Below are positions 16,003-25,179 of a DNA stretch of 58,771 nucleotides, piece by piece. The position numbers and the translations under genes were made by a program. Numbering within the stretch: the stretch's first letter is position 1; every line of letters begins with the position of its first letter. The notes below the pieces were generated by a model that did no database searches, was not told where the DNA came from, and saw nothing but the letters and a program-made list of their open reading frames with translations. Origin of the DNA: Deltaproteobacteria bacterium (GTDB lineage Bacteria > Myxococcota > UBA727 > VGSZ01); the NCBI GenBank assembly GCA_016874845.1, contig VGSZ01000005.1, forward strand, positions 1-58,771, read 5' to 3'.

Positions 16003-17190
<1,188 letters not shown>

Positions 17191-17203
17191 TCTTGCCGTG
17201 ACG

Positions 17204-17255
17204 CAGGGCAGGGGCGGCCGCAAGGTCGCCCCTGCTCTGTCTCACTGGATTTCTT
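17204..17255 (+). terminator. Stem-loop after tuf (probable terminator/attenuator)
   Basis: cagggcaggggcggcc-gcaa-ggtcgcccctgctctg followed by a pyrimidine-rich tract. Confidence 0.7.
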
Positions 17256-17366
17256 TCGCTCACTTCCCCTTTCACCGTCTGGTTTCTGGCCCGGTTTCAC
17301 GATTCGGGAGAATCACCTCCCGGACCACCCGCCAACGGCCGCACTGCCCAGTAGCGTGAGGAACAC

Positions 17367-17678
<312 letters not shown>

Positions 17679-17766
17679 ACGGCCGCCCCGGGAAGCACAC
17701 CGGCAAGGTCCGTGCTGCGGGCGATCCTCTCTCCACTTTTGTTCTCTTCGACATCAGGAAACCTGT

Positions 17767-18390
17767 ATGGCCAACCATGACGTCATCGACCTCGCGAACA
17801 AGAAGGTCGGTACCATCGAGCTCCACGACGCCGTCTTCGCGGCGCCCATCCGTCGCCACCTGCTCACCGAGGTCGTGAACTGGCAGCGCGCCCGCGCCCG
17901 CGCCGGCACGCAGTCGGTCAAGACCCGCAGCGAGGTCAACGGCACGACCAAGAAGCCCTACGGCCAGAAGCACACCGGCAACGCCCGCCAAGGTGACATG
18001 AAGGCCCCGCACTTCCGCGGCGGCGGCGTCGCGTTCGCGCCCAAGCCGCGCGACTACGACTACGCGCTGCCGAAGGCCAAGCGCCGCGCGGCGCTGATGG
18101 TCGCGCTCAGCCTGAAGGTCCAGGAGGGCGGCCTGCGCGTCGTCAAGTCCTTCGACTTGCAGGAGGCGAAGACGAAGGCGGTGGCCGGCGCGCTCAAGTC
18201 GCTGAACACCGGTGACACGCTGATGGTCGACGGTGACAACGAGAGCCTGCAGCGCGCCAGCCGCAACCTGGCCGACTCGCGCTACCTCCATGTCGACGGT
18301 CTCAATGTCGTCGACCTGCTCAAGTACCCCTCGCTCGTGATGACCGAGGCGGCGGTGAAGGCCATCCAGGCCCGCCTGCTGGGCGAGTGA
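17767..18390 (+). CDS. rplD: 50S ribosomal protein L4
   Basis: [42 protein letters not shown]. Confidence 0.98.
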
Positions 18391-18442
18391 GCAAGCGCCC
18401 TTCCCACCCATTCGAGCCGCGAGGCTCTAAAGGAACCCAGCG

Positions 18443-18784
18443 ATGAACAAGCACACCTACGGCGTGATCGTGCGCCCCCTCGTCACCGAGAAGTCGTCGG
18501 CGCTCAAGGCCGAAGCCAACAAGGTCGCCTTCGAGGTCAAGAAGTCGGCGAACAAGATCGACGTCAAGAACGCCGTCGAGGGCCTGTTCGACGTCAAGGT
18601 CACCGATGTGACGACGATGGTCGTCCGCGGCAAGCACAAGCGCGTCGGCACCTCGTTCGGCCGCAAGAGCAACTGGAAGAAGGCCATCGTGACCCTGAAA
18701 GAGGGCACCGACCTCGACGTCTTCGGCGTGCAGGGAGCGCCCGGCGGCAACGAGGGCGGCGAGGCCCCGGCCGAGCAGGGCTGA
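18443..18784 (+). CDS. rplW: 50S ribosomal protein L23
   Basis: RPLVTEKS..FEVKKSANKIDVKNAVEGLFDVKV..WKKAIVTLKEG. Confidence 0.98.
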   Translation: MNKHTYGVIVRPLVTEKSSALKAEANKVAFEVKKSANKIDVKNAVEGLFDVKVTDVTTMVVRGKHKRVGTSFGRKSNWKKAIVTLKEGTDLDVFGVQGAPGGNEGGEAPAEQG

Positions 18785-18793
18785 GCGACCCCA

Positions 18794-18816
18794 CCACGCA
18801 GCCACGTGCTGCGTGG
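18794..18816 (+). terminator. Hairpin directly after rplW
   Basis: ccacgcagc-cacgt-gctgcgtgg, a 9-bp stem with no U-tract. Confidence 0.45.
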
Positions 18817-19067
18817 CGACGACGGGCGCGCCGTACGAGCTGTCCGGGGCGCCCGTCGCGCTTCGGAGGGGCTCCTGGGGCCTCTCGCGGGCTGTGGTGA
18901 AAACGCCGCCGGCGCTTCACCACAGCCTGCTCTCCGTCTGACCGGTCTGTTCCAGACCCGTCCCCCGTCGAGCGAAGCTCGACAGGGCCCCCACCCCAGA
19001 CGCAGCCCTCGGCGAAAACGGCCTTCGGCCATCTTCACGGCAGGCTGCTCGCGACGACGGGCGTGCC
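18816..19067. repeat. Structured intergenic element with several hairpins, bracketed by 17-bp direct repeats
   Basis: gcgacgacgggcgcgcc (18816-18832) and gcgacgacgggcgtgcc (19051-19067); inverted repeat gcgggctgtggtgaa/ttcaccacagcctgc (18887-18930); gtcgagc-gaa-gctcgac; ggccttcggcc. Confidence 0.6.
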
Positions 19068-19185
19068 ACCGCTGGCCGTCGACCTCGACCCGCCGACCGA
19101 CGCGCCAAAGCGGGACGCGTCGGGCTAGATCCCCGACACGTCGCGTGGCTCTGCGAGCCTCTTCGTCGACGCCGAAGGAGAGCCC

Positions 19186-20094
19186 ATGCCCCGCATCGAT
19201 GGTCGACCGGATGTCGCGCGCGCGCCGCGGTCGCCGCAGACCGACCTGCAGACCGCGCAGACGGTGGCGAAGGAGCTTTACGGGCCGACGACGAAGATCG
19301 TCGACGCTGGCGTGCCCGGTGTCCTCGACGCCGCGGACAAGCTCGTGCGGCAGAACGCGCGGGGCGAGACGGTGACCCGGGCGCTCGGCGTGCGCCGCAG
19401 CGAGAACATCGCGTTCCGCGCCCACGTCGTGCAGGCGGCGAAGGATCTGGCGGCGTCGGGGGCGTCGTTTTCGGGCAGCCACCAGACCGACAAGGTCAAC
19501 CAGACGCTGTGGACGATGGGCTACGGTGGCAAGATGCAGGTTCGCAAGTGGCTGGCCGACGGCGAGACCGGCAAGCCATCGGCGGCGCTGCGCGACATCT
19601 TCGACAACGGCCGCGCCTACGGCTTCGAGTGCGCCACCGCGATGATGGTCATCTACCACAAGGCCATCCTCGACCACGTCGGCGACGAGGCCTTCGACAA
19701 GCTGTTCAGCGAGCCAAAGAACCTCGCGTTCTTCCGCTGGGACATCGAGGACGCCGACTTTGTCGACGCCAAGAAGCTCGTGCACCGGCCGATGCCCCTG
19801 CAGCCCGGCACGCACTACTACTTCGAGAACCCCGACGCCGCGCCCGAGAACTCGGCGTTTCGCGGCGAGAACGTGCTGTACCTCGGCGACGGCCAGTTCT
19901 ACGCCCACGGCATCGTGGGCGACTCGGGCACCTACCTCGTCACCGAGAAGGACATCGTCGACACGCTGTCGGCGCTGCGCGCGCCCGGCGCCGACTCCGC
20001 GCCGCGCCGCGTGAACATGGCCATGTGGCTCGACGGCTATTCGCTGTCGAAGAAGGCCTTCCCCGACGGCATTCCGCAGGGGCTGCCGGCGTGA
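19186..20094 (+). CDS. tgl: Protein-glutamine gamma-glutamyltransferase (Bacillus Tgl-like transglutaminase)
   Basis: KPSAALRDIFDNG..YGFECATAMMVIYHKAILD..YFENPD..FRGENVLYLGDGQFYAHG matches the B. subtilis Tgl pattern (YAFECATA..YFKNP..WRGENVILLG..YFAHG); AAGGAG RBS. Confidence 0.88.
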   Translation: MPRIDGRPDVARAPRSPQTDLQTAQTVAKELYGPTTKIVDAGVPGVLDAADKLVRQNARGETVTRALGVRRSENIAFRAHVVQAAKDLAASGASFSGSHQTDKVNQTLWTMGYGGKMQVRKWLADGETGKPSAALRDIFDNGRAYGFECATAMMVIYHKAILDHVGDEAFDKLFSEPKNLAFFRWDIEDADFVDAKKLVHRPMPLQPGTHYYFENPDAAPENSAFRGENVLYLGDGQFYAHGIVGDSGTYLVTEKDIVDTLSALRAPGADSAPRRVNMAMWLDGYSLSKKAFPDGIPQGLPA

Positions 20095-20104
20095 GCCGTC
20101 ATCG

Positions 20105-20500
20105 ATGAGCTCGCCGTCGGCCGCCGTCGTCCCCGGGGTGCTGCGCTCGTCGAAGGGCGCGTGGCTGTTCCGCCCCGGCGCCCTCGACGTGCTGTGGCGC
20201 GTGACGCCGCTGCCGGTGCCTGCGCTCGATGCGCTGTCGACGACGGTCACTGCTCGCCTGGTCGTGAAGGCAGCGCGGGTGCGCTCGTCGTCGTCAGCGA
20301 CGAAGGCAGCCGTGCCCCGCACCGGCGTGCCCGAGCGCCTGACCGGCCCGGTGGTGGCGGGCGGCGGCGGCACCGTGGTGGTCGACGTCGGCGTGCCGCT
20401 GGTGGTCGACGCCGTGGCTGGCGCCTTCGTGGTCGGCGACGTCGTCGAGGTCGACGTCGACGTCGACGCTGGCTTGCGCTGCGTCGCCCTGTCCCCCTGA
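20105..20500 (+). CDS. Hypothetical beta-strand-rich protein
   Basis: 10 nt after tgl and 20 nt before the ATP-grasp gene; genome-typical codons; Val-rich strands. Confidence 0.65.
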   Translation: MSSPSAAVVPGVLRSSKGAWLFRPGALDVLWRVTPLPVPALDALSTTVTARLVVKAARVRSSSSATKAAVPRTGVPERLTGPVVAGGGGTVVVDVGVPLVVDAVAGAFVVGDVVEVDVDVDAGLRCVALSP

Positions 20501-20520
20501 GCCGCCGCGGAGCCCGCACG

Positions 20521-21483
20521 GTGAAGGTCGCGGTCTTCTCCCGCCGCAGCCCCGAGGTCGACGCGCAGTACGATCGCCTGAGCGCCGGCCTGCTCGCCGC
20601 CGGCCACGACGTCGTCCACATCGACATCGTCGCCTTCGGCCGGGGCACGGTGTCGTTCGATCCGGCCGGGGGGCTTGTGGTGGCCGACGAGGTCGCCCTC
20701 GATCCGTCGACGCTAGGCGCCGTGGTGCTCGGCCCGCTGCCGGCGGCGGTGGGGCGCACGGCGCTGACCGGCACGAACCTGTCCGCCGACGAGCACTACG
20801 CCCGGGCGCGCACCGCGGGCGAGCGGCACGCGCTGGCGTGGTCGATCGTGCTCGACTGGGAGCGCCGCGGCGTGCCGGTGCTGTCGTCGCCGTCTCTGGC
20901 GCGCCCGTTCGACCACAAGCCGCACCAGCTGGCGTCGCTGGCGCCGCGGGTGCCCGTGCCGCGCACGCTGATCACCGCCGACCCGGGCGCGCTGCGCGCG
21001 TTCGCCGAGAGCGTCGGCGACTGCGTCGTCAAGCCGGTGACCGGCGGCCCGGCCCGCGCCTTCGACCCCGAGCGACCGCTGGCGCTGCGCCCCGGCGAGC
21101 CGGTGCAGGTGCAAGAGCGGGTGCGCGGGCAGGACATCCGCGCCGTCGTCGTCGGCGACGACGTCGTGGCCGTCGCCGCCTTCGACCCCGCCGTGGGCGA
21201 CGACGTCGTCGACGTGCGGGCGCGCGCCGCGTGGCGCGACGGCACCGGGCGCTGGGCGCCGGTGGACGCACCCGCGCTGCGCGACGTCGCGCGGCGGGCG
21301 GCGCAGACGTGCCGCTTCGACCTCGCCGCCGTCGACCTGAAGCGGCGCGTCGACGGCAGCGTCGTCGTGCTCGAGGTCAACCGCACGCCGGTGGTGGTGG
21401 ACCTCGAGGACGACCTGGGCGCGCCCATCACCGAGCGTTTCGTCGCCCACGTCGAGCGACGCGCCGCCGAGCGTCCGACGTGA
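20521..21483 (+). CDS. RimK/graspetide-synthetase-like ATP-grasp ligase
   Basis: GTG 20521; DHKPHQL, VPVPRTLIT, VVKPVTGG, VQERVRGQDIRAVVVG, AVDLK, VLEVNRTP. Confidence 0.88.
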   Translation: MKVAVFSRRSPEVDAQYDRLSAGLLAAGHDVVHIDIVAFGRGTVSFDPAGGLVVADEVALDPSTLGAVVLGPLPAAVGRTALTGTNLSADEHYARARTAGERHALAWSIVLDWERRGVPVLSSPSLARPFDHKPHQLASLAPRVPVPRTLITADPGALRAFAESVGDCVVKPVTGGPARAFDPERPLALRPGEPVQVQERVRGQDIRAVVVGDDVVAVAAFDPAVGDDVVDVRARAAWRDGTGRWAPVDAPALRDVARRAAQTCRFDLAAVDLKRRVDGSVVVLEVNRTPVVVDLEDDLGAPITERFVAHVERRAAERPT

Positions 21484-21587
21484 CGCCCCACGCGGCTGCG
21501 GTTGACGCCCTACGCCCGGCTTGACGAGAGTAATCTCCAGCGTCGACGGGTTCGACGGTCGCGCCGGACTGGCACGGCGGGGAGCGT

Positions 21588-23033
21588 TTGGTGGATTGCG
21601 CGTCGTGTGGAGCGTTCGAGCCGACGAAGACCCGCTGCGAGGTCTGCGGCTTCGCCTTTCCCGCGGACGGTGACGCCGCCCCTCTTGCGGCCTTCTTCGG
21701 CCTCGTCTGCACCGCCTGCGACACCTACAACGACTCCGGCGCCGTCCGCTGCGTCGCGTGCGCCGCACCCTTGGACGACGAAGACGCCGCCGTCGCCGCG
21801 CCGCCCGCGTCGCCCGTATCGCCCGCTGCGCCGCCCGCGTCGCCAGTTGCGCCGCCCGTGTCGCCAGTTGCGCCGCCCGTGTCGCCAGTTGCGCCGCCCG
21901 TGTCGCCAGTTGCGCCGCCCGCTGCGCCGCCCTCGCTGTCCTTTGCCTCGCCTTTGCCCGCGTGGTCGGCGCCGCTGCCTTCCACGTCGGCGGCGCCGAC
22001 CTTCGCGCCATCGCCCGCCGCGCGTCCGTTCCCGTCGCCGCCGCTGCCGCCGCTGCCGCCGTTGGCCGCGCCGTCGGGCGGCGCGTCGACCTCGGCGGGC
22101 GTGCCCTGCTGGCGCTGCTCGACCACCACGGGACCCGGCGACAAGTTCTGTCGCCACTGCGGCGCCCGCGTCGACGCCGCCCCCGCCCCGCCCGGCGCCG
22201 CCGGGAGCGCGACCCAGGTGATCCCCGCGGCGCGCCCCGTCAGCGTCGTCCCTGCCGCCGCCCTTGGCGCCCTCGCCCCGCCCGCGCCGGCGGCGCTGCC
22301 TGCGCCGTCGGCCCCCGCCGCCGCGGCGCCGTCGCCGACGATGTTCTTCGGCGCCGTCACCGTCGAGCGGTCGGCCAAGCTGATTCTCGTGCGCGGCCAC
22401 ACGCAGTTCGGCACACAGTGGCGCCTGCAGGCCGGCGAGACCGCCCTGGGGCGCAACAGCGGCGTCGTGCTCTTTCCCGACGACAACGCCCTCGCCGACC
22501 GCCACGCCCGCCTCGTCTTCCGCGGCGCCGACCTCTTCGTCGAACCGCTGCCGAGCACCAACGGCGTGTTCATCCGCCTGCGCGAGCCCGCGCGCCTGCA
22601 CCAGGGCGACGAGTTCATCGTCGGCGCCCAGCGCCTGCGCCTGCTGCACGACCACGAGCGCCCCGTCGCCGCCTCCGCCGTCGTGGACGCCGCCGGCACG
22701 CACCTGCAGGGCAGCGCCGTGCGCCCCGGCCAGTCCACCCTCGCCCTCGCGCGCATCACGTCCGATCCGACCCACACCGAGGTCTATGTGCGGTACCAGC
22801 GGCTGCTGACCCTCGGGCGGACCACCTGCGACGTGAACTTCGCCGCTGACGGCTTCGTCTCCGAGCGCCACGCCCAGCTGACCCAGGTGGGCGACCACGT
22901 CCTGCTCGAGGACCTGAAGAGCCGCAACGGCACCTACGCCCGCGTCTCGGGCCCCTGGAAGCTCGCCCACGGCGACCTGCTGCTCGCTGGCGAGCAGGTC
23001 CTGCGCGTCGAGCTGAACACGCCGCGCGGCTGA
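21588..23033 (+). CDS. Zinc-ribbon plus double FHA domain protein
   Basis: Six CxxC motifs; two FHA domains (LGRNSG..LADRHA..STNGVF and LGRTTC..VSERHA..SRNGTY); Pro-rich linker. Confidence 0.9.
   Translation: MVDCASCGAFEPTKTRCEVCGFAFPADGDAAPLAAFFGLVCTACDTYNDSGAVRCVACAAPLDDEDAAVAAPPASPVSPAAPPASPVAPPVSPVAPPVSPVAPPVSPVAPPAAPPSLSFASPLPAWSAPLPSTSAAPTFAPSPAARPFPSPPLPPLPPLAAPSGGASTSAGVPCWRCSTTTGPGDKFCRHCGARVDAAPAPPGAAGSATQVIPAARPVSVVPAAALGALAPPAPAALPAPSAPAAAAPSPTMFFGAVTVERSAKLILVRGHTQFGTQWRLQAGETALGRNSGVVLFPDDNALADRHARLVFRGADLFVEPLPSTNGVFIRLREPARLHQGDEFIVGAQRLRLLHDHERPVAASAVVDAAGTHLQGSAVRPGQSTLALARITSDPTHTEVYVRYQRLLTLGRTTCDVNFAADGFVSERHAQLTQVGDHVLLEDLKSRNGTYARVSGPWKLAHGDLLLAGEQVLRVELNTPRG
21797..21921. 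repeat. 21-bp tandem repeat encoding (APPVSPV)n
   Basis: gcgccgcccgtgtcgccagtt, about 5 copies. Confidence 0.85.
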
Positions 23034-23058
23034 GGCCGGGGCGGCCCCCGAGGTCCCA

Positions 23059-25179
23059 ATGTCTGCGCACCCCATCCCCCCCGTGCTCCGTGTCGGCGAG
23101 ACCTTCGCCGAGCGCTACGTCGTCGAAGAGCAGTTGGGCACCGGCGGGATGGGCGCCGTCTACCGGGTGCTCGACACCTTCGTCGGCGAGAACATCGCGC
23201 TGAAGCTCGCGGCCATCGACAGCGCCGACCCGGTGCGCGCCGAGCGCCTGTGGGAGCTGCAGCGCGGCGAGGTGACGATGGCGCGTCGCGTGGCGCACCC
23301 GCACGTCGCGCGCGTCTTCGACCTCGGCCGCCACGACGGCATCCCCTACCTGACGATGGCCTATGTCCCGGGCCCGACGCTGCGGGGGGCGCTGCGCGCG
23401 GGGGCGCTCACGACCCTCGACATCGCCCGGCTCGGCCACGACATCGCCTCGGCCCTCGCCGCTGCCCACGCCGCCGGCGTGCTGCACCTCGACCTCAAGC
23501 CCGAGAACGTCGTCCTGACCGGCGGCGCGACCCCCGTCGCGGTGCTCGTCGACTTCGGCATCGCGCGCGCGCTCGGCACCGCGAGCTCGGGCATGGGCAC
23601 CGCCGACTACATCTCGCCCGAGCAGCTCGAGCGCAGCTCGCTGACCGGCGCCGCCGACGTGTTCGCGCTCGGCTGCGTGCTGCACGAGGCCTTGAGCGGA
23701 CGGCACGCCTTCACCGGCCGCTCGCGGCGCGAGCGGATGCTGGCCCGGCTGGACGCCGACCCGCGCGCGCTGCCCGACGACGTCCCCGCCGGGCTGGCGG
23801 CGCTCGTGCGTCGTTGCCTTGCCCGCGAGCCGGGGGAGCGGCCCACGGCCGCGTTCCTCGAGCGCGCCTTCGCCGAACAGGGGCTCGCCCTCGACCCCCA
23901 AAGCGGCCCGTCGCCGACGTCGGGGACGTCGGGGACGTTGGGGACGTCGGGGACGTCGGCCCGTCGCGTCGACCTCGGCGCCTTCGGCGGTGGTCTGGGC
24001 CGGCGCCTCGCCACCGCGCGGCGCAAGCTGCTGCGCATGGGCGGCGAGGACGAGAGCCTGGCCGAGATCGAGTCGGTCCTCGCCGTCGAGCCGCGCCTCG
24101 ACGTAGGGCTGGCGCTGCGGGCGCTGGCGTTGGTGCGGCTGTGGCACCGCAGCGGGGTGCACACCGACGCCGAGCGGCACGCCCTCGCCGAGCGCGCCGC
24201 CGCCGCCGTCGCCGACGCCGTCGCCGCGGCCTCGCACCTGGCCGACACCCACCTGGCCGACGCGTTGATCGCCGACTACGGCGGCGACATCGCCTACGCG
24301 GTGCGCGCGCTGCGCCGGGCGCAGACGCTCGAGCCGTTGCACGCGTTCAGCCACGAGGTCCTCGGGCGCATCGAGCTCGAGGGCAACGTCGGCGGCGTCG
24401 ACCGGTTGCTGCTCGCCCACGACCTCGACGCCGGCCAGCTGGGCGCGCTGGCGACGGCGGCACGCGAGCACTTCCTGACCGGTCGCGACGACGAGGGCGA
24501 GGCGCTGCTGGCCGTCGTCGAGGCCGGCCAGCACGGGCGGCACCTCGACGCCACCGCGTTGCGGATGCGGCTGTGCCTTTGGCGGCGCGATCGGGCGCAG
24601 GCGCGTCGACTGCAACTGCTGGTGGGGCCGCCCGGGCTGGTCGCGCTTCGGGTCCTGCAGGCCGGACTCGGCGTCCTGATCGGCGAGACCAGCGTCGATG
24701 CGCTCATCGAGGCCGCCGCCGACGCGGCGCAGCGGACCGCCAGCCCCAAGCGCAAGAGCCACATCCACCAGCTCGCCGCGGAGGCGCTGGCTGCCGTCGC
24801 GCCCGACGAGGCCATCCGCCATCTGGTCAGCTGCGCGCGCCAACCGCTGTCGGACCTCCGCTGGCTCGACGCCTGCCCCGCGCTCGACCCGCTGCGCGGC
24901 AGCCTGGCCTTCGTCGAGGCCCGCGGCGTCGTCCAGCAGCGCGTCGATCGCGCCTTCGCCGTCGAGCGCGTCGTCGAGGCGGTCCGCTTCCGCTCGGCGC
25001 AAGGCGCGCCCCTCGGCAGCCAGCCGCAGTTCGTCGCGCTCGACACGGTGACCGTGCAGCCGATGGGGTCGTCGCAGGCCCCCACCGGGACGCTCGTCGA
25101 CCTGGACGACGACGGCGACGACGACGACGCTGCCGCCGCCGCGACCCGCCGGGTCCGCTCCGCGAAGCCCAACCGCTGA
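23059..25179 (+). CDS. Ser/Thr protein kinase (non-RD) with helical TPR-like C-terminus
   Basis: LGTGGMGAVY, IALK, HLDLKPEN, DFGIA, GTADYISPEQ; no TM segment. Confidence 0.9.
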   Translation: MSAHPIPPVLRVGETFAERYVVEEQLGTGGMGAVYRVLDTFVGENIALKLAAIDSADPVRAERLWELQRGEVTMARRVAHPHVARVFDLGRHDGIPYLTMAYVPGPTLRGALRAGALTTLDIARLGHDIASALAAAHAAGVLHLDLKPENVVLTGGATPVAVLVDFGIARALGTASSGMGTADYISPEQLERSSLTGAADVFALGCVLHEALSGRHAFTGRSRRERMLARLDADPRALPDDVPAGLAALVRRCLAREPGERPTAAFLERAFAEQGLALDPQSGPSPTSGTSGTLGTSGTSARRVDLGAFGGGLGRRLATARRKLLRMGGEDESLAEIESVLAVEPRLDVGLALRALALVRLWHRSGVHTDAERHALAERAAAAVADAVAAASHLADTHLADALIADYGGDIAYAVRALRRAQTLEPLHAFSHEVLGRIELEGNVGGVDRLLLAHDLDAGQLGALATAAREHFLTGRDDEGEALLAVVEAGQHGRHLDATALRMRLCLWRRDRAQARRLQLLVGPPGLVALRVLQAGLGVLIGETSVDALIEAAADAAQRTASPKRKSHIHQLAAEALAAVAPDEAIRHLVSCARQPLSDLRWLDACPALDPLRGSLAFVEARGVVQQRVDRAFAVERVVEAVRFRSAQGAPLGSQPQFVALDTVTVQPMGSSQAPTGTLVDLDDDGDDDDAAAAATRRVRSAKPNR

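Follow-up and report, generated by a model that had tools for sequence, protein, structure and literature searches.

A conserved gene pair of a Bacillus-type transglutaminase and a small, predicted beta-barrel protein in Myxococcota, with a graspetide synthetase-like ATP-grasp ligase as probable lineage-specific addition

Which function could a transglutaminase of the type known from spore coats (Tgl) have in a bacterium that does not form endospores, and why is its gene followed at short distance by genes for a small protein and an ATP-grasp ligase? These three genes lie together on contig VGSZ01000005.1 of a deltaproteobacterium (phylum Myxococcota, assembly GCA_016874845.1), a stretch of 58,771 nucleotides (nt) that we refer to as the window and that corresponds to contig C5 in a genome of 5.6 Mb (G000) with 532 contigs and 94.8% completeness. 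An earlier interpretation made from the letters of the window (the sequence-only reading) had proposed that the two amide-forming enzymes act on a shared substrate, possibly the middle protein of 131 amino acids (aa), in a system for peptide cross-linking or tagging. Our comparison with related loci places the emphasis differently: The conserved unit is probably the pair of Tgl and the middle protein, which we call the partner, with the ATP-grasp ligase as a lineage-specific third gene.

The pairing is evident from the neighborhood of tgl in relatives. The partner gene adjoins tgl in all six loci that were read as DNA, namely in the window, in the genomes G003 (L005), G004 (L029) and G063 (L003), and in two metagenome contigs (L071 and L072). 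In G003, G004 and G063, the start codon of the partner gene overlaps the stop codon of tgl (GTGA, GTGA and ATGA, respectively), which suggests that their translation is coupled, while in L071 and L072 the partner homologue is transcribed divergently from tgl. Since the two genes are divergent in two of the six loci, their adjacency has outlived rearrangement. The supposition that the middle protein belongs with Tgl, which had been derived from the window, is thereby upheld. The flanks of the pair vary as well: In the window, the gene for L23 is located 5' of tgl, in G004 this place is taken by a divergent gene, and in G003 a convergent tRNA-Met gene is located 3' of the pair. The forward-strand frame of the partner gene is conserved over residues 11–126 (E = 1e-18 in L005), compared with E = 2e-9 for the antisense frame. 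Among 401 genomes sampled from the phylum, four strong matches to the partner profile were obtained, all of them beside tgl; five more matches (E = 3e-4 to 9e-4) cover the profile partially and lie within open frames of 202–659 aa. With a narrower partner alignment, the search of the genome collection yielded the genome containing L003 alone and the metagenome search yielded two contigs. Nine further contigs, with sizes of 3038, 6809, 49385, 10010, 17652, 29830, 8003, 12126 and 3173 nt, contain both genes; for these and all other contigs not read as DNA, co-location was deduced from identical contig sizes in independent protein searches. In contrast to this close association, 27 of the 30 Tgl loci in the phylum sample have no partner homologue within 1.5 kb, and in L002, L004 and L006 different genes come after the one for the Tgl orthologue. 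Because most Tgl loci of the phylum lack a partner homologue, the partner appears to be specific to one Tgl clade. It is very improbable that the three genes of the window are unrelated neighbors without shared function: The gene order of this genome is rearranged, as illustrated by an S10 operon in pieces, and the linkage of the ATP-grasp gene is narrow, which would fit chance proximity, but the adjacency of tgl and the partner gene in every readable locus, in two orientations and between different flanks, argues against it.

The arrangement in the window is real and not an artefact of assembly, because contigs from four other sequencing runs bridge the junctions without any difference. In overlapping pieces, these contigs span positions 19224–21868, and every one of them runs from the middle gene across into the ATP-grasp gene (Table 1). 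None of the four runs is marked as a potential source of the window, and the runs holding this stretch are labelled as lake-water metagenomes; no RNA data set is among the 24 runs. The description of three co-oriented genes with gaps of 10 and 20 nt agrees with the open reading frame (ORF) coordinates, the bridging contigs and the guanine-plus-cytosine (GC) content by codon position. With its preference for GC at the third position and lowest value at the second, the latter supports exactly these three frames on the forward strand. The GTG start codon of the ATP-grasp gene lies within a longer open frame, of which the first 120 codons encode arginine-rich junk, and we rejected this 5' extension as a shadow frame. 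The same holds for a long antisense ORF of 720 aa, as the codon-position GC favors the forward frames. The antisense translation of the middle gene produced one weak match in L008 (E = 6e-5), which is located inside the coding region of an ATP-grasp gene and was likewise treated as a shadow-frame effect.

Transglutaminases of the Tgl type form a thioester between the active-site cysteine and a protein glutamine and pass the acyl group to the amine of a lysine, so that a Gln-Lys isopeptide bond is created. The window Tgl matches the Pfam family PF20085 (TGL) with E = 6e-45 and 153.8 bits, compared with a cut-off of 23.7, over profile positions 48–234 of 245, and it also matches the solved chains 7c9j (E = 7e-27) and 4p8i (E = 7e-25). 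For Tgl of Bacillus subtilis, excerpts of the literature name Cys116, Glu187, Glu115, His200, Phe69, Trp149, Trp184, Arg185 and Asn188 as catalytic or tunnel residues (PMC6490927). In the alignment with 4p8i, of which the chain numbering is identical to the native B. subtilis numbering, C116 corresponds to C149, E187 to E228, E115 to E148, H200 to H241, F69 to F95, W149 to W185, R185 to R226 and N188 to N229, and the only changed position is Trp184, which is F225 in the window protein. The motifs FEC (E148-C149), R226-G-E228-N229 and H241 are thus counterparts of E115-C116, R185-G-E187-N188 and H200. Among 16 aligned homologues, F95, C149, W185, E228, N229 and H241 are invariant and E148 is nearly so. 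The assertion that both enzymes have retained their catalytic motifs was correct for Tgl at these positions, and for the ATP-grasp ligase at its KPHQL motif, which is described below. Because the catalytic residues are kept, yet the score against the NCBIfam equivalog model NF002869 (146.5 bits) is below the cut-off of 307, we classify the protein by sequence comparison as a PF20085 family member with intact active site and not as a Bacillus equivalog or orthologue. It shares the Pfam family, the catalytic and tunnel residues by alignment and a similar size of the catalytic domain with the B. subtilis spore-coat enzyme (4p8i/4pa5, 7c9j), from which it differs by approximately 70 additional N-terminal residues outside the Pfam match, the exchange of Trp184 for phenylalanine and a host that is no endospore former. 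Inspection by eye did not reveal an N-terminal signal peptide. PF20085 was matched in 39 of the 401 genomes of the phylum sample and, among 14 control genomes, in B. subtilis alone. In G115 (contigs C152, C191 and C227), G096 (contig C66) and other genomes, partial matches to the TGL domain were located within open frames of up to approximately 1,750 aa, which suggests that multidomain proteins with a Tgl-like module exist as well. In the literature that we found, Tgl-type enzymes were studied solely as spore-coat cross-linkers of Bacilli, and we found no publication on Tgl-type enzymes in Myxococcota, on a partner protein of Tgl or on a pairing of Tgl with an ATP-grasp enzyme. To our knowledge, the Bacillus Tgl system does not include an adjacent gene for a dedicated partner. 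Substrates of the Bacillus enzyme named in part of the literature are GerQ, SafA and YeeK (PMC7725329). With the Tgl family now seen in a Gram-negative phylum, the pair of Tgl and partner offers a concrete and testable handle on the role of these enzymes outside of endospores.

The partner has no match in Pfam or NCBIfam. When 1.84 billion cluster representatives were searched with a profile built from four partner sequences, 31 proteins, most of them 117–166 aa long, were retrieved at E ≤ 1e-3, and by this criterion the partner is a member of an undescribed family. An AlphaFold2 model calculated with 26 family sequences is all-beta and has a predicted local distance difference test score (pLDDT) of 93.5 and a predicted template-modelling score of 0.87; in this model, the partner is a small double beta-barrel with two small barrel-like halves. 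The best fold matches, to TOBE/di-Mop domains, are weak (Foldseek E = 0.017 with a template-modelling (TM) score of 0.43; VIA Z = 5.0 with a root-mean-square deviation of 4.3 over 110 of 131 residues) and have scores in the range that the tool calls common among unrelated folds. One of the 26 family members has a marginal match to TOBE_3 (E = 0.053), but the window protein has none in Pfam. TOBE/di-Mop domains such as those of ModE, ModG and the C-terminus of ModC resemble the partner over nearly its whole length in this weak fold comparison, but a sequence relationship and a transporter or molybdate context are lacking. Searching the ESM Atlas for similar structures yielded only scores under 0.9 and TM scores of about 0.3.

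The most conspicuous feature of the partner family is a lysine at position 17 in the motif LRxSKGxWLF, which is kept in 22 of 22 close family members and is the sole lysine in 12 of them. In the predicted model, strands one and two form the first beta hairpin, and Lys17 is located in its turn. The window partner contains three lysines and no glutamine, and because it has no glutamine, it cannot be the glutamine-side substrate of Tgl and cannot self-polymerize. A lone conserved lysine in a lysine-poor, high-GC proteome, next to an enzyme that cross-links glutamine to lysine, is most simply read as an amine donor. We therefore propose, with a confidence at or slightly below an even chance, that the core of the system is a two-gene module of a cytoplasmic Bacillus-type Tgl and a small beta-barrel partner, in which the partner would serve as the dedicated lysine-side substrate: Lys17 would reach into the tunnel of Tgl on the lysine side, and the partner would thereby be coupled covalently to glutamine residues in one or several other proteins. 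The existence of the genes, the catalytic residues, the conservation of the pair, the narrow distribution of all three genes together and the pattern of a single lysine are directly shown, whereas the binding of the partner to Tgl, the donor role of Lys17 and the co-transcription of the genes are all inferred. Tgl with its partner could also furnish a small enzyme-and-tag combination for ligating proteins. A donor function is weakened by the larger set of 26 sequences, since position 17 is occupied by arginine in three and by aspartate or asparagine in two of these sequences, and arginine in distant members makes it possible that this residue is a plain basic contact instead of a reactive amine.

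Such a contact would be expected if the partner were a regulator or inhibitor dedicated to Tgl in the cytoplasm, which would dock on the enzyme, might plug the lysine-side tunnel with residue 17 and would keep a constitutively active cross-linker silent until there is demand for it. Some bacterial cysteine proteases have genes for small beta-barrel inhibitors as neighbors in a similar manner. The conservation of the pair and the overlap of stop and start codons would favor production of both proteins in a 1:1 ratio, the partner is a compact domain that is folded with high confidence in the model, and arginine at position 17 in 3 of the 26 sequences, all from distant members, would fit a binding contact. 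Moreover, the B. subtilis enzyme is active as produced and depends on control from outside, according to excerpts of its description (PMC6490927). On the other hand, the retention of Lys17 in all close members of a family that otherwise avoids lysine points to a need for an amine, and no known inhibitor fold stands out among the structural matches, with potempin D (Z = 2.9) being one of many rows with similar scores. We consider a regulatory function to be rather unlikely and prefer the function of the partner as lysine donor.

Regarding the third gene, the ATP-grasp ligase matches the RimK-like family PF08443 with 25.9 bits (cut-off 21), and only the C-terminal half contributes to the match. 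Its best solved relative is 7drm (E = 2.7e-22), followed by an MvdD-like enzyme (E = 1e-10) and RimK (E about 1e-8). 7drm is one of four entries with a single sequence that we take to be the PsnB crystal structures of the preprint 10.1101/2021.03.09.434688. The KPHQL motif at residues 133–137, which had been likened to graspetide synthetases in the sequence-only reading, indeed aligns to KPFQL of 7drm. According to parts of the preprint, Arg213 of PsnB binds the ring-forming carboxylate, a D(F/W)R loop is present and Arg72 is highly conserved in graspetide enzymes (10.1101/2021.03.09.434688). Mapping of these residues relied on an offset of 20 between chain and publication numbering that was deduced from the DFR motif. 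The equivalent of Arg213 is R207, which aligns to the arginine of DVRVY in 7drm, and the D(F/W)R loop reads D231-V232-R233, with the aromatic residue replaced. R207, D231 and R233 are invariant among 22 ATP-grasp homologues. The counterpart of Arg72 is Gly71, a residue without variation among nine orthologues, and is located in an N-terminal part of the pairwise alignment that is less certain. The scores against graspetide models are all below the cut-offs (TIGR04187, 59.5 bits compared with 350; TIGR04185 and TIGR04184, about 20 bits), and so are those against the rimK models (TIGR00768, 47.4 compared with 143.4 bits; NF007764, 46 compared with 331 bits). By these comparisons, the ligase is a divergent relative of the PsnB-like graspetide synthetases. 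It shares with them the KPxQL motif, the carboxylate-binding arginine and the aspartate and arginine of the D(F/W)R loop, but differs in Gly71, in the DVR loop, in scores far under the subfamily cut-off and in the absence of an adjacent precursor: No graspetide precursor peptide was detected at the locus, where the partner is encoded by the sole small gene nearby and no ORF is visible in the 104 nt after the ATP-grasp gene.

Five other species of the genus contain related ATP-grasp enzymes with 37–51% identity (tblastn), which are encoded behind a TetR regulator and a DUF2939 protein in L008, L009, L010 and L013 (G005, G001, G003 and G004, respectively); L011 (G002) has no TetR match in the stretch examined. 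The DUF2939 open frame either overlaps the beginning of the ATP-grasp match or stops no more than about 5 nt away from it. The DUF2939 proteins of these species are membrane-anchored, have a length of about 210 aa and variable tails rich in serine, threonine and lysine, and constitute an uncharacterized context for ATP-grasp enzymes. No DUF2939 protein was found in the window genome, which has a single ATP-grasp ligase of this kind. Unlike graspetide synthetases, the ligases of this clade thus have whole proteins encoded upstream, the Tgl partner in the window and DUF2939 proteins in the same genus. A graspetide-like ligase behind whole-protein genes and without a peptide precursor bears on the question how enzymes for RiPPs (ribosomally synthesized peptides that carry post-translational modifications) change their clients.

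The linkage of this ligase to Tgl is narrow. In the phylum sample, none of the 29 other Tgl loci has an ATP-grasp gene next to tgl, the same is true for all 6 loci from the scan of the genome collection, which overlap in part with the 29, and in none of 11 loci with ATP-grasp relatives was Tgl or the partner found. In one metagenome-assembled genome, Tgl and its ATP-grasp homologue are located on different contigs. Orthologues of the ligase with 65–84% identity were obtained by searching 5.8 billion proteins, while protein and alignment scans of the genome collection did not yield any. A maximum-likelihood tree of 35 sequences united the window ligase and its orthologues in a clade of ten (support 98/96), which is placed beside the ATP-grasp enzymes with DUF2939 context from the same genus within a clade with 100/100 support. 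Within the clade of ten, the crown consists of the ligases linked to both other genes, and those without a size-matched contig branch earlier. The simplest history that fits this topology is a single, recent capture of the ATP-grasp gene behind tgl and the partner gene in the closest relatives, and the ligase would accordingly be a non-obligate add-on to the pair.

Several observations count against regarding the ligase as a mere add-on. By matching size, three contigs (6809, 10010 and 49385 nt) contain all three genes, a contig of 5839 nt contains Tgl and the ATP-grasp ligase, and a contig of 3148 nt contains the partner and the ligase. The ATP-grasp enzymes on the 6809-, 10010-, 49385- and 5839-nt contigs are 75–77% identical to the one in the window, and the contigs matched by size carry close homologues of Tgl (85–88%) and the partner (71–79%). 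In the window, the 20-nt gap between the partner and ATP-grasp genes is free of terminator-like sites, which over the locus are not more numerous than in shuffled sequences, and a promoter scan of the locus found no sigma-70-like site; the ligase is probably co-transcribed with tgl and the partner gene here. Finally, the partner proteins of the clade with all three genes have a clade-specific N-terminus rich in serine and threonine and an RVRRSSS(S/T)T-type loop, both of which are absent from the clade with the pair alone and would suit an ATP-grasp enzyme linking carboxylates with side chains that carry a hydroxyl or amine group. These findings would fit a three-component system in the nearest clade, in which the ligase joins activated aspartate or glutamate to serine, threonine or lysine and acts together with Tgl on the partner or on shared targets to generate a doubly cross-linked product or tag. 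The conserved R207 and the abutting or overlapping DUF2939 frames in the same genus, which may indicate that acting with the protein encoded upstream is a habit of this clade, are consistent with this possibility as well. However, the arrangement is confined to one clade and one event, so that shared ancestry alone can explain it, the Ser/Thr-rich loop of the window partner is modelled as ordered by AlphaFold2, and Tgl and the partner occur without the ligase in G003, G004, G063, L071 and L072. Conversely, ATP-grasp contigs of 43994, 15683, 7299, 4238 and 36730 nt have no size-matched Tgl or partner among 20 expanded Tgl clusters; those of 4238 and 36730 nt may have a match nonetheless, because the comparison comprised neither fragments nor the members of clusters to which the window proteins belong. 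Because all occurrences trace back to one evolutionary event, we regard the recurrence of the three genes as a lead and not as evidence of joint function, and we judge a three-component system to be unlikely, even slightly more so than the regulatory function of the partner. Linkage in relatives, the absence of which had been named in the sequence-only reading as a refutation, is seen by matching size on three additional contigs from the nearest clade, and for Tgl and the ligase on a fourth, but not in the loci sampled outside of this clade. A specific version for the lake-water lineage, in which Tgl would tag glutamines of target proteins via the carrier lysine, and the ligase would join the Ser/Thr loop or Lys17 to aspartate or glutamate or lock the carrier by an internal ester, appears more doubtful still. 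If it were true, the carrier would represent a folded protein tag of ribosomal origin that a transglutaminase installs, and for the first time a graspetide-type ligase would be known that modifies a folded protein instead of a peptide.

A RiPP cluster of the graspetide type, with the middle protein as precursor and Tgl as tailoring enzyme or leader peptidase, had also been among the possibilities raised. The similarity of the ligase to PsnB invites this interpretation, and in G013, a genome of the same order as the window genome, a relative of the ligase is encoded in a textbook-looking graspetide locus (L018, contig C20), where a precursor with many TTxAxGEEDGG repeats and without Pfam match, at about positions 3–386 on the strand of the ATP-grasp genes, precedes two tandem ATP-grasp genes. 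Furthermore, a survey of 2026 mentions that graspetide groups 33 and 39 have neighbors with a predicted transglutaminase fold (PMC13097080). In two supplementary files of the same publication, the terms 'transglutaminase', 'PF20085' and 'PF01841' are absent, and a word search of a paper on graspetide phylogenomics was negative for a pairing of Tgl with ATP-grasp enzymes (PMC8939145). The middle protein, with its confidently folded beta domain, has no repeated core motif and travels with Tgl and not with the ligase, and the deviations of the latter from PsnB at Gly71 and in the DVR loop, together with the low TIGR04187 score, also argue against a graspetide synthetase in the strict sense. We therefore consider a RiPP cluster to be the least likely of all interpretations, with hardly any probability left to it.

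Operons with genes for a circularly permuted ATP-grasp enzyme, an Alpha-E protein and a transglutaminase-like protein of the Transglut_core type, often together with Anbu, were reportedly predicted by Iyer and colleagues in 2009. They likewise combine an ATP-dependent amide ligase with a papain-like thiol enzyme, with a proposed function in peptide or protein modification, and appear by analogy to be the closest precedent for an ATP-grasp enzyme encoded together with a transglutaminase-like one. The families differ nevertheless: In the window, the thiol enzyme belongs to PF20085, the ligase is a plain PsnB/RimK-like enzyme and Alpha-E is missing, as the Pfam scan of the three genes gave PF20085 and PF08443 alone.

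Table 1. Positions of genes, rejected frames, flanking features and bridging contigs in the window.
Feature	Position	Strand	Remarks
tuf, rpsJ (S10), rplD (L4), rplW (L23)	16003-18784		part of a broken-up S10 operon
Hairpin 1 after rplW	18820-18858	+	inverted repeat of 17 nt, 88% complementarity
Hairpin 2 after rplW	18887-18930	+	inverted repeat of 15 nt, 93% complementarity; repeated palindromic element
Region of raised contig depth	18884-19125		four runs
TGL-family transglutaminase gene (gene 1)	19186-20094	+	302 aa, ATG start, GAAGGAG just 5'
Gap between genes 1 and 2	20095-20104		10 nt
Partner (middle) protein gene (gene 2)	20105-20500	+	131 aa, ATG start
Gap between genes 2 and 3	20501-20520		20 nt
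ATP-grasp ligase gene (gene 3)	20521-21483	+	320 aa, GTG start
Longer open frame around gene 3	20161-21483	+	5' extension rejected as shadow frame
Antisense ORF	18457-20619	-	rejected as shadow frame
Gene for zinc-ribbon/FHA protein	21588-23033	+	zinc ribbon, Pro-rich linker, two FHA domains
Zinc-ribbon/FHA gene and following Ser/Thr kinase gene	21588-25179	+	co-oriented
Run contig X4	19729-21327		0 differences
Run contig X5	19931-21868		0 differences
Run contig X6	19224-20887		0 differences
Run contig X7	19492-20871		0 differences

Downstream of the ATP-grasp gene follow genes for a protein with zinc ribbon and FHA domains and for a Ser/Thr kinase. As the partners of the clade with all three genes have a Ser/Thr-rich loop, phosphorylation may be another possibility. 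Upstream of tgl, the genes tuf, rpsJ, rplD and rplW are followed by two hairpins, at which the ribosomal-protein genes end and the cluster has its upstream boundary. In the usual S10 operon, the gene for L3 is located between those for S10 and L4, and the gene for L2 follows that for L23. In G000, this operon is broken up and ends in the window after rplW; L3 is encoded on contig C11 (weak Pfam match, 39 bits) and L2 on contig C29. The second hairpin is a palindrome with the stem GGCTGTGGTGAA, a 14-nt loop and TTCACCACAGCC, which occurs at five sites in the genome with near-identical loops, compared with zero sites for a reversed control pattern, and it resembles repeats of the repetitive extragenic palindromic (REP) type. 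The summed depth of contigs from the four runs is raised around this palindromic element.

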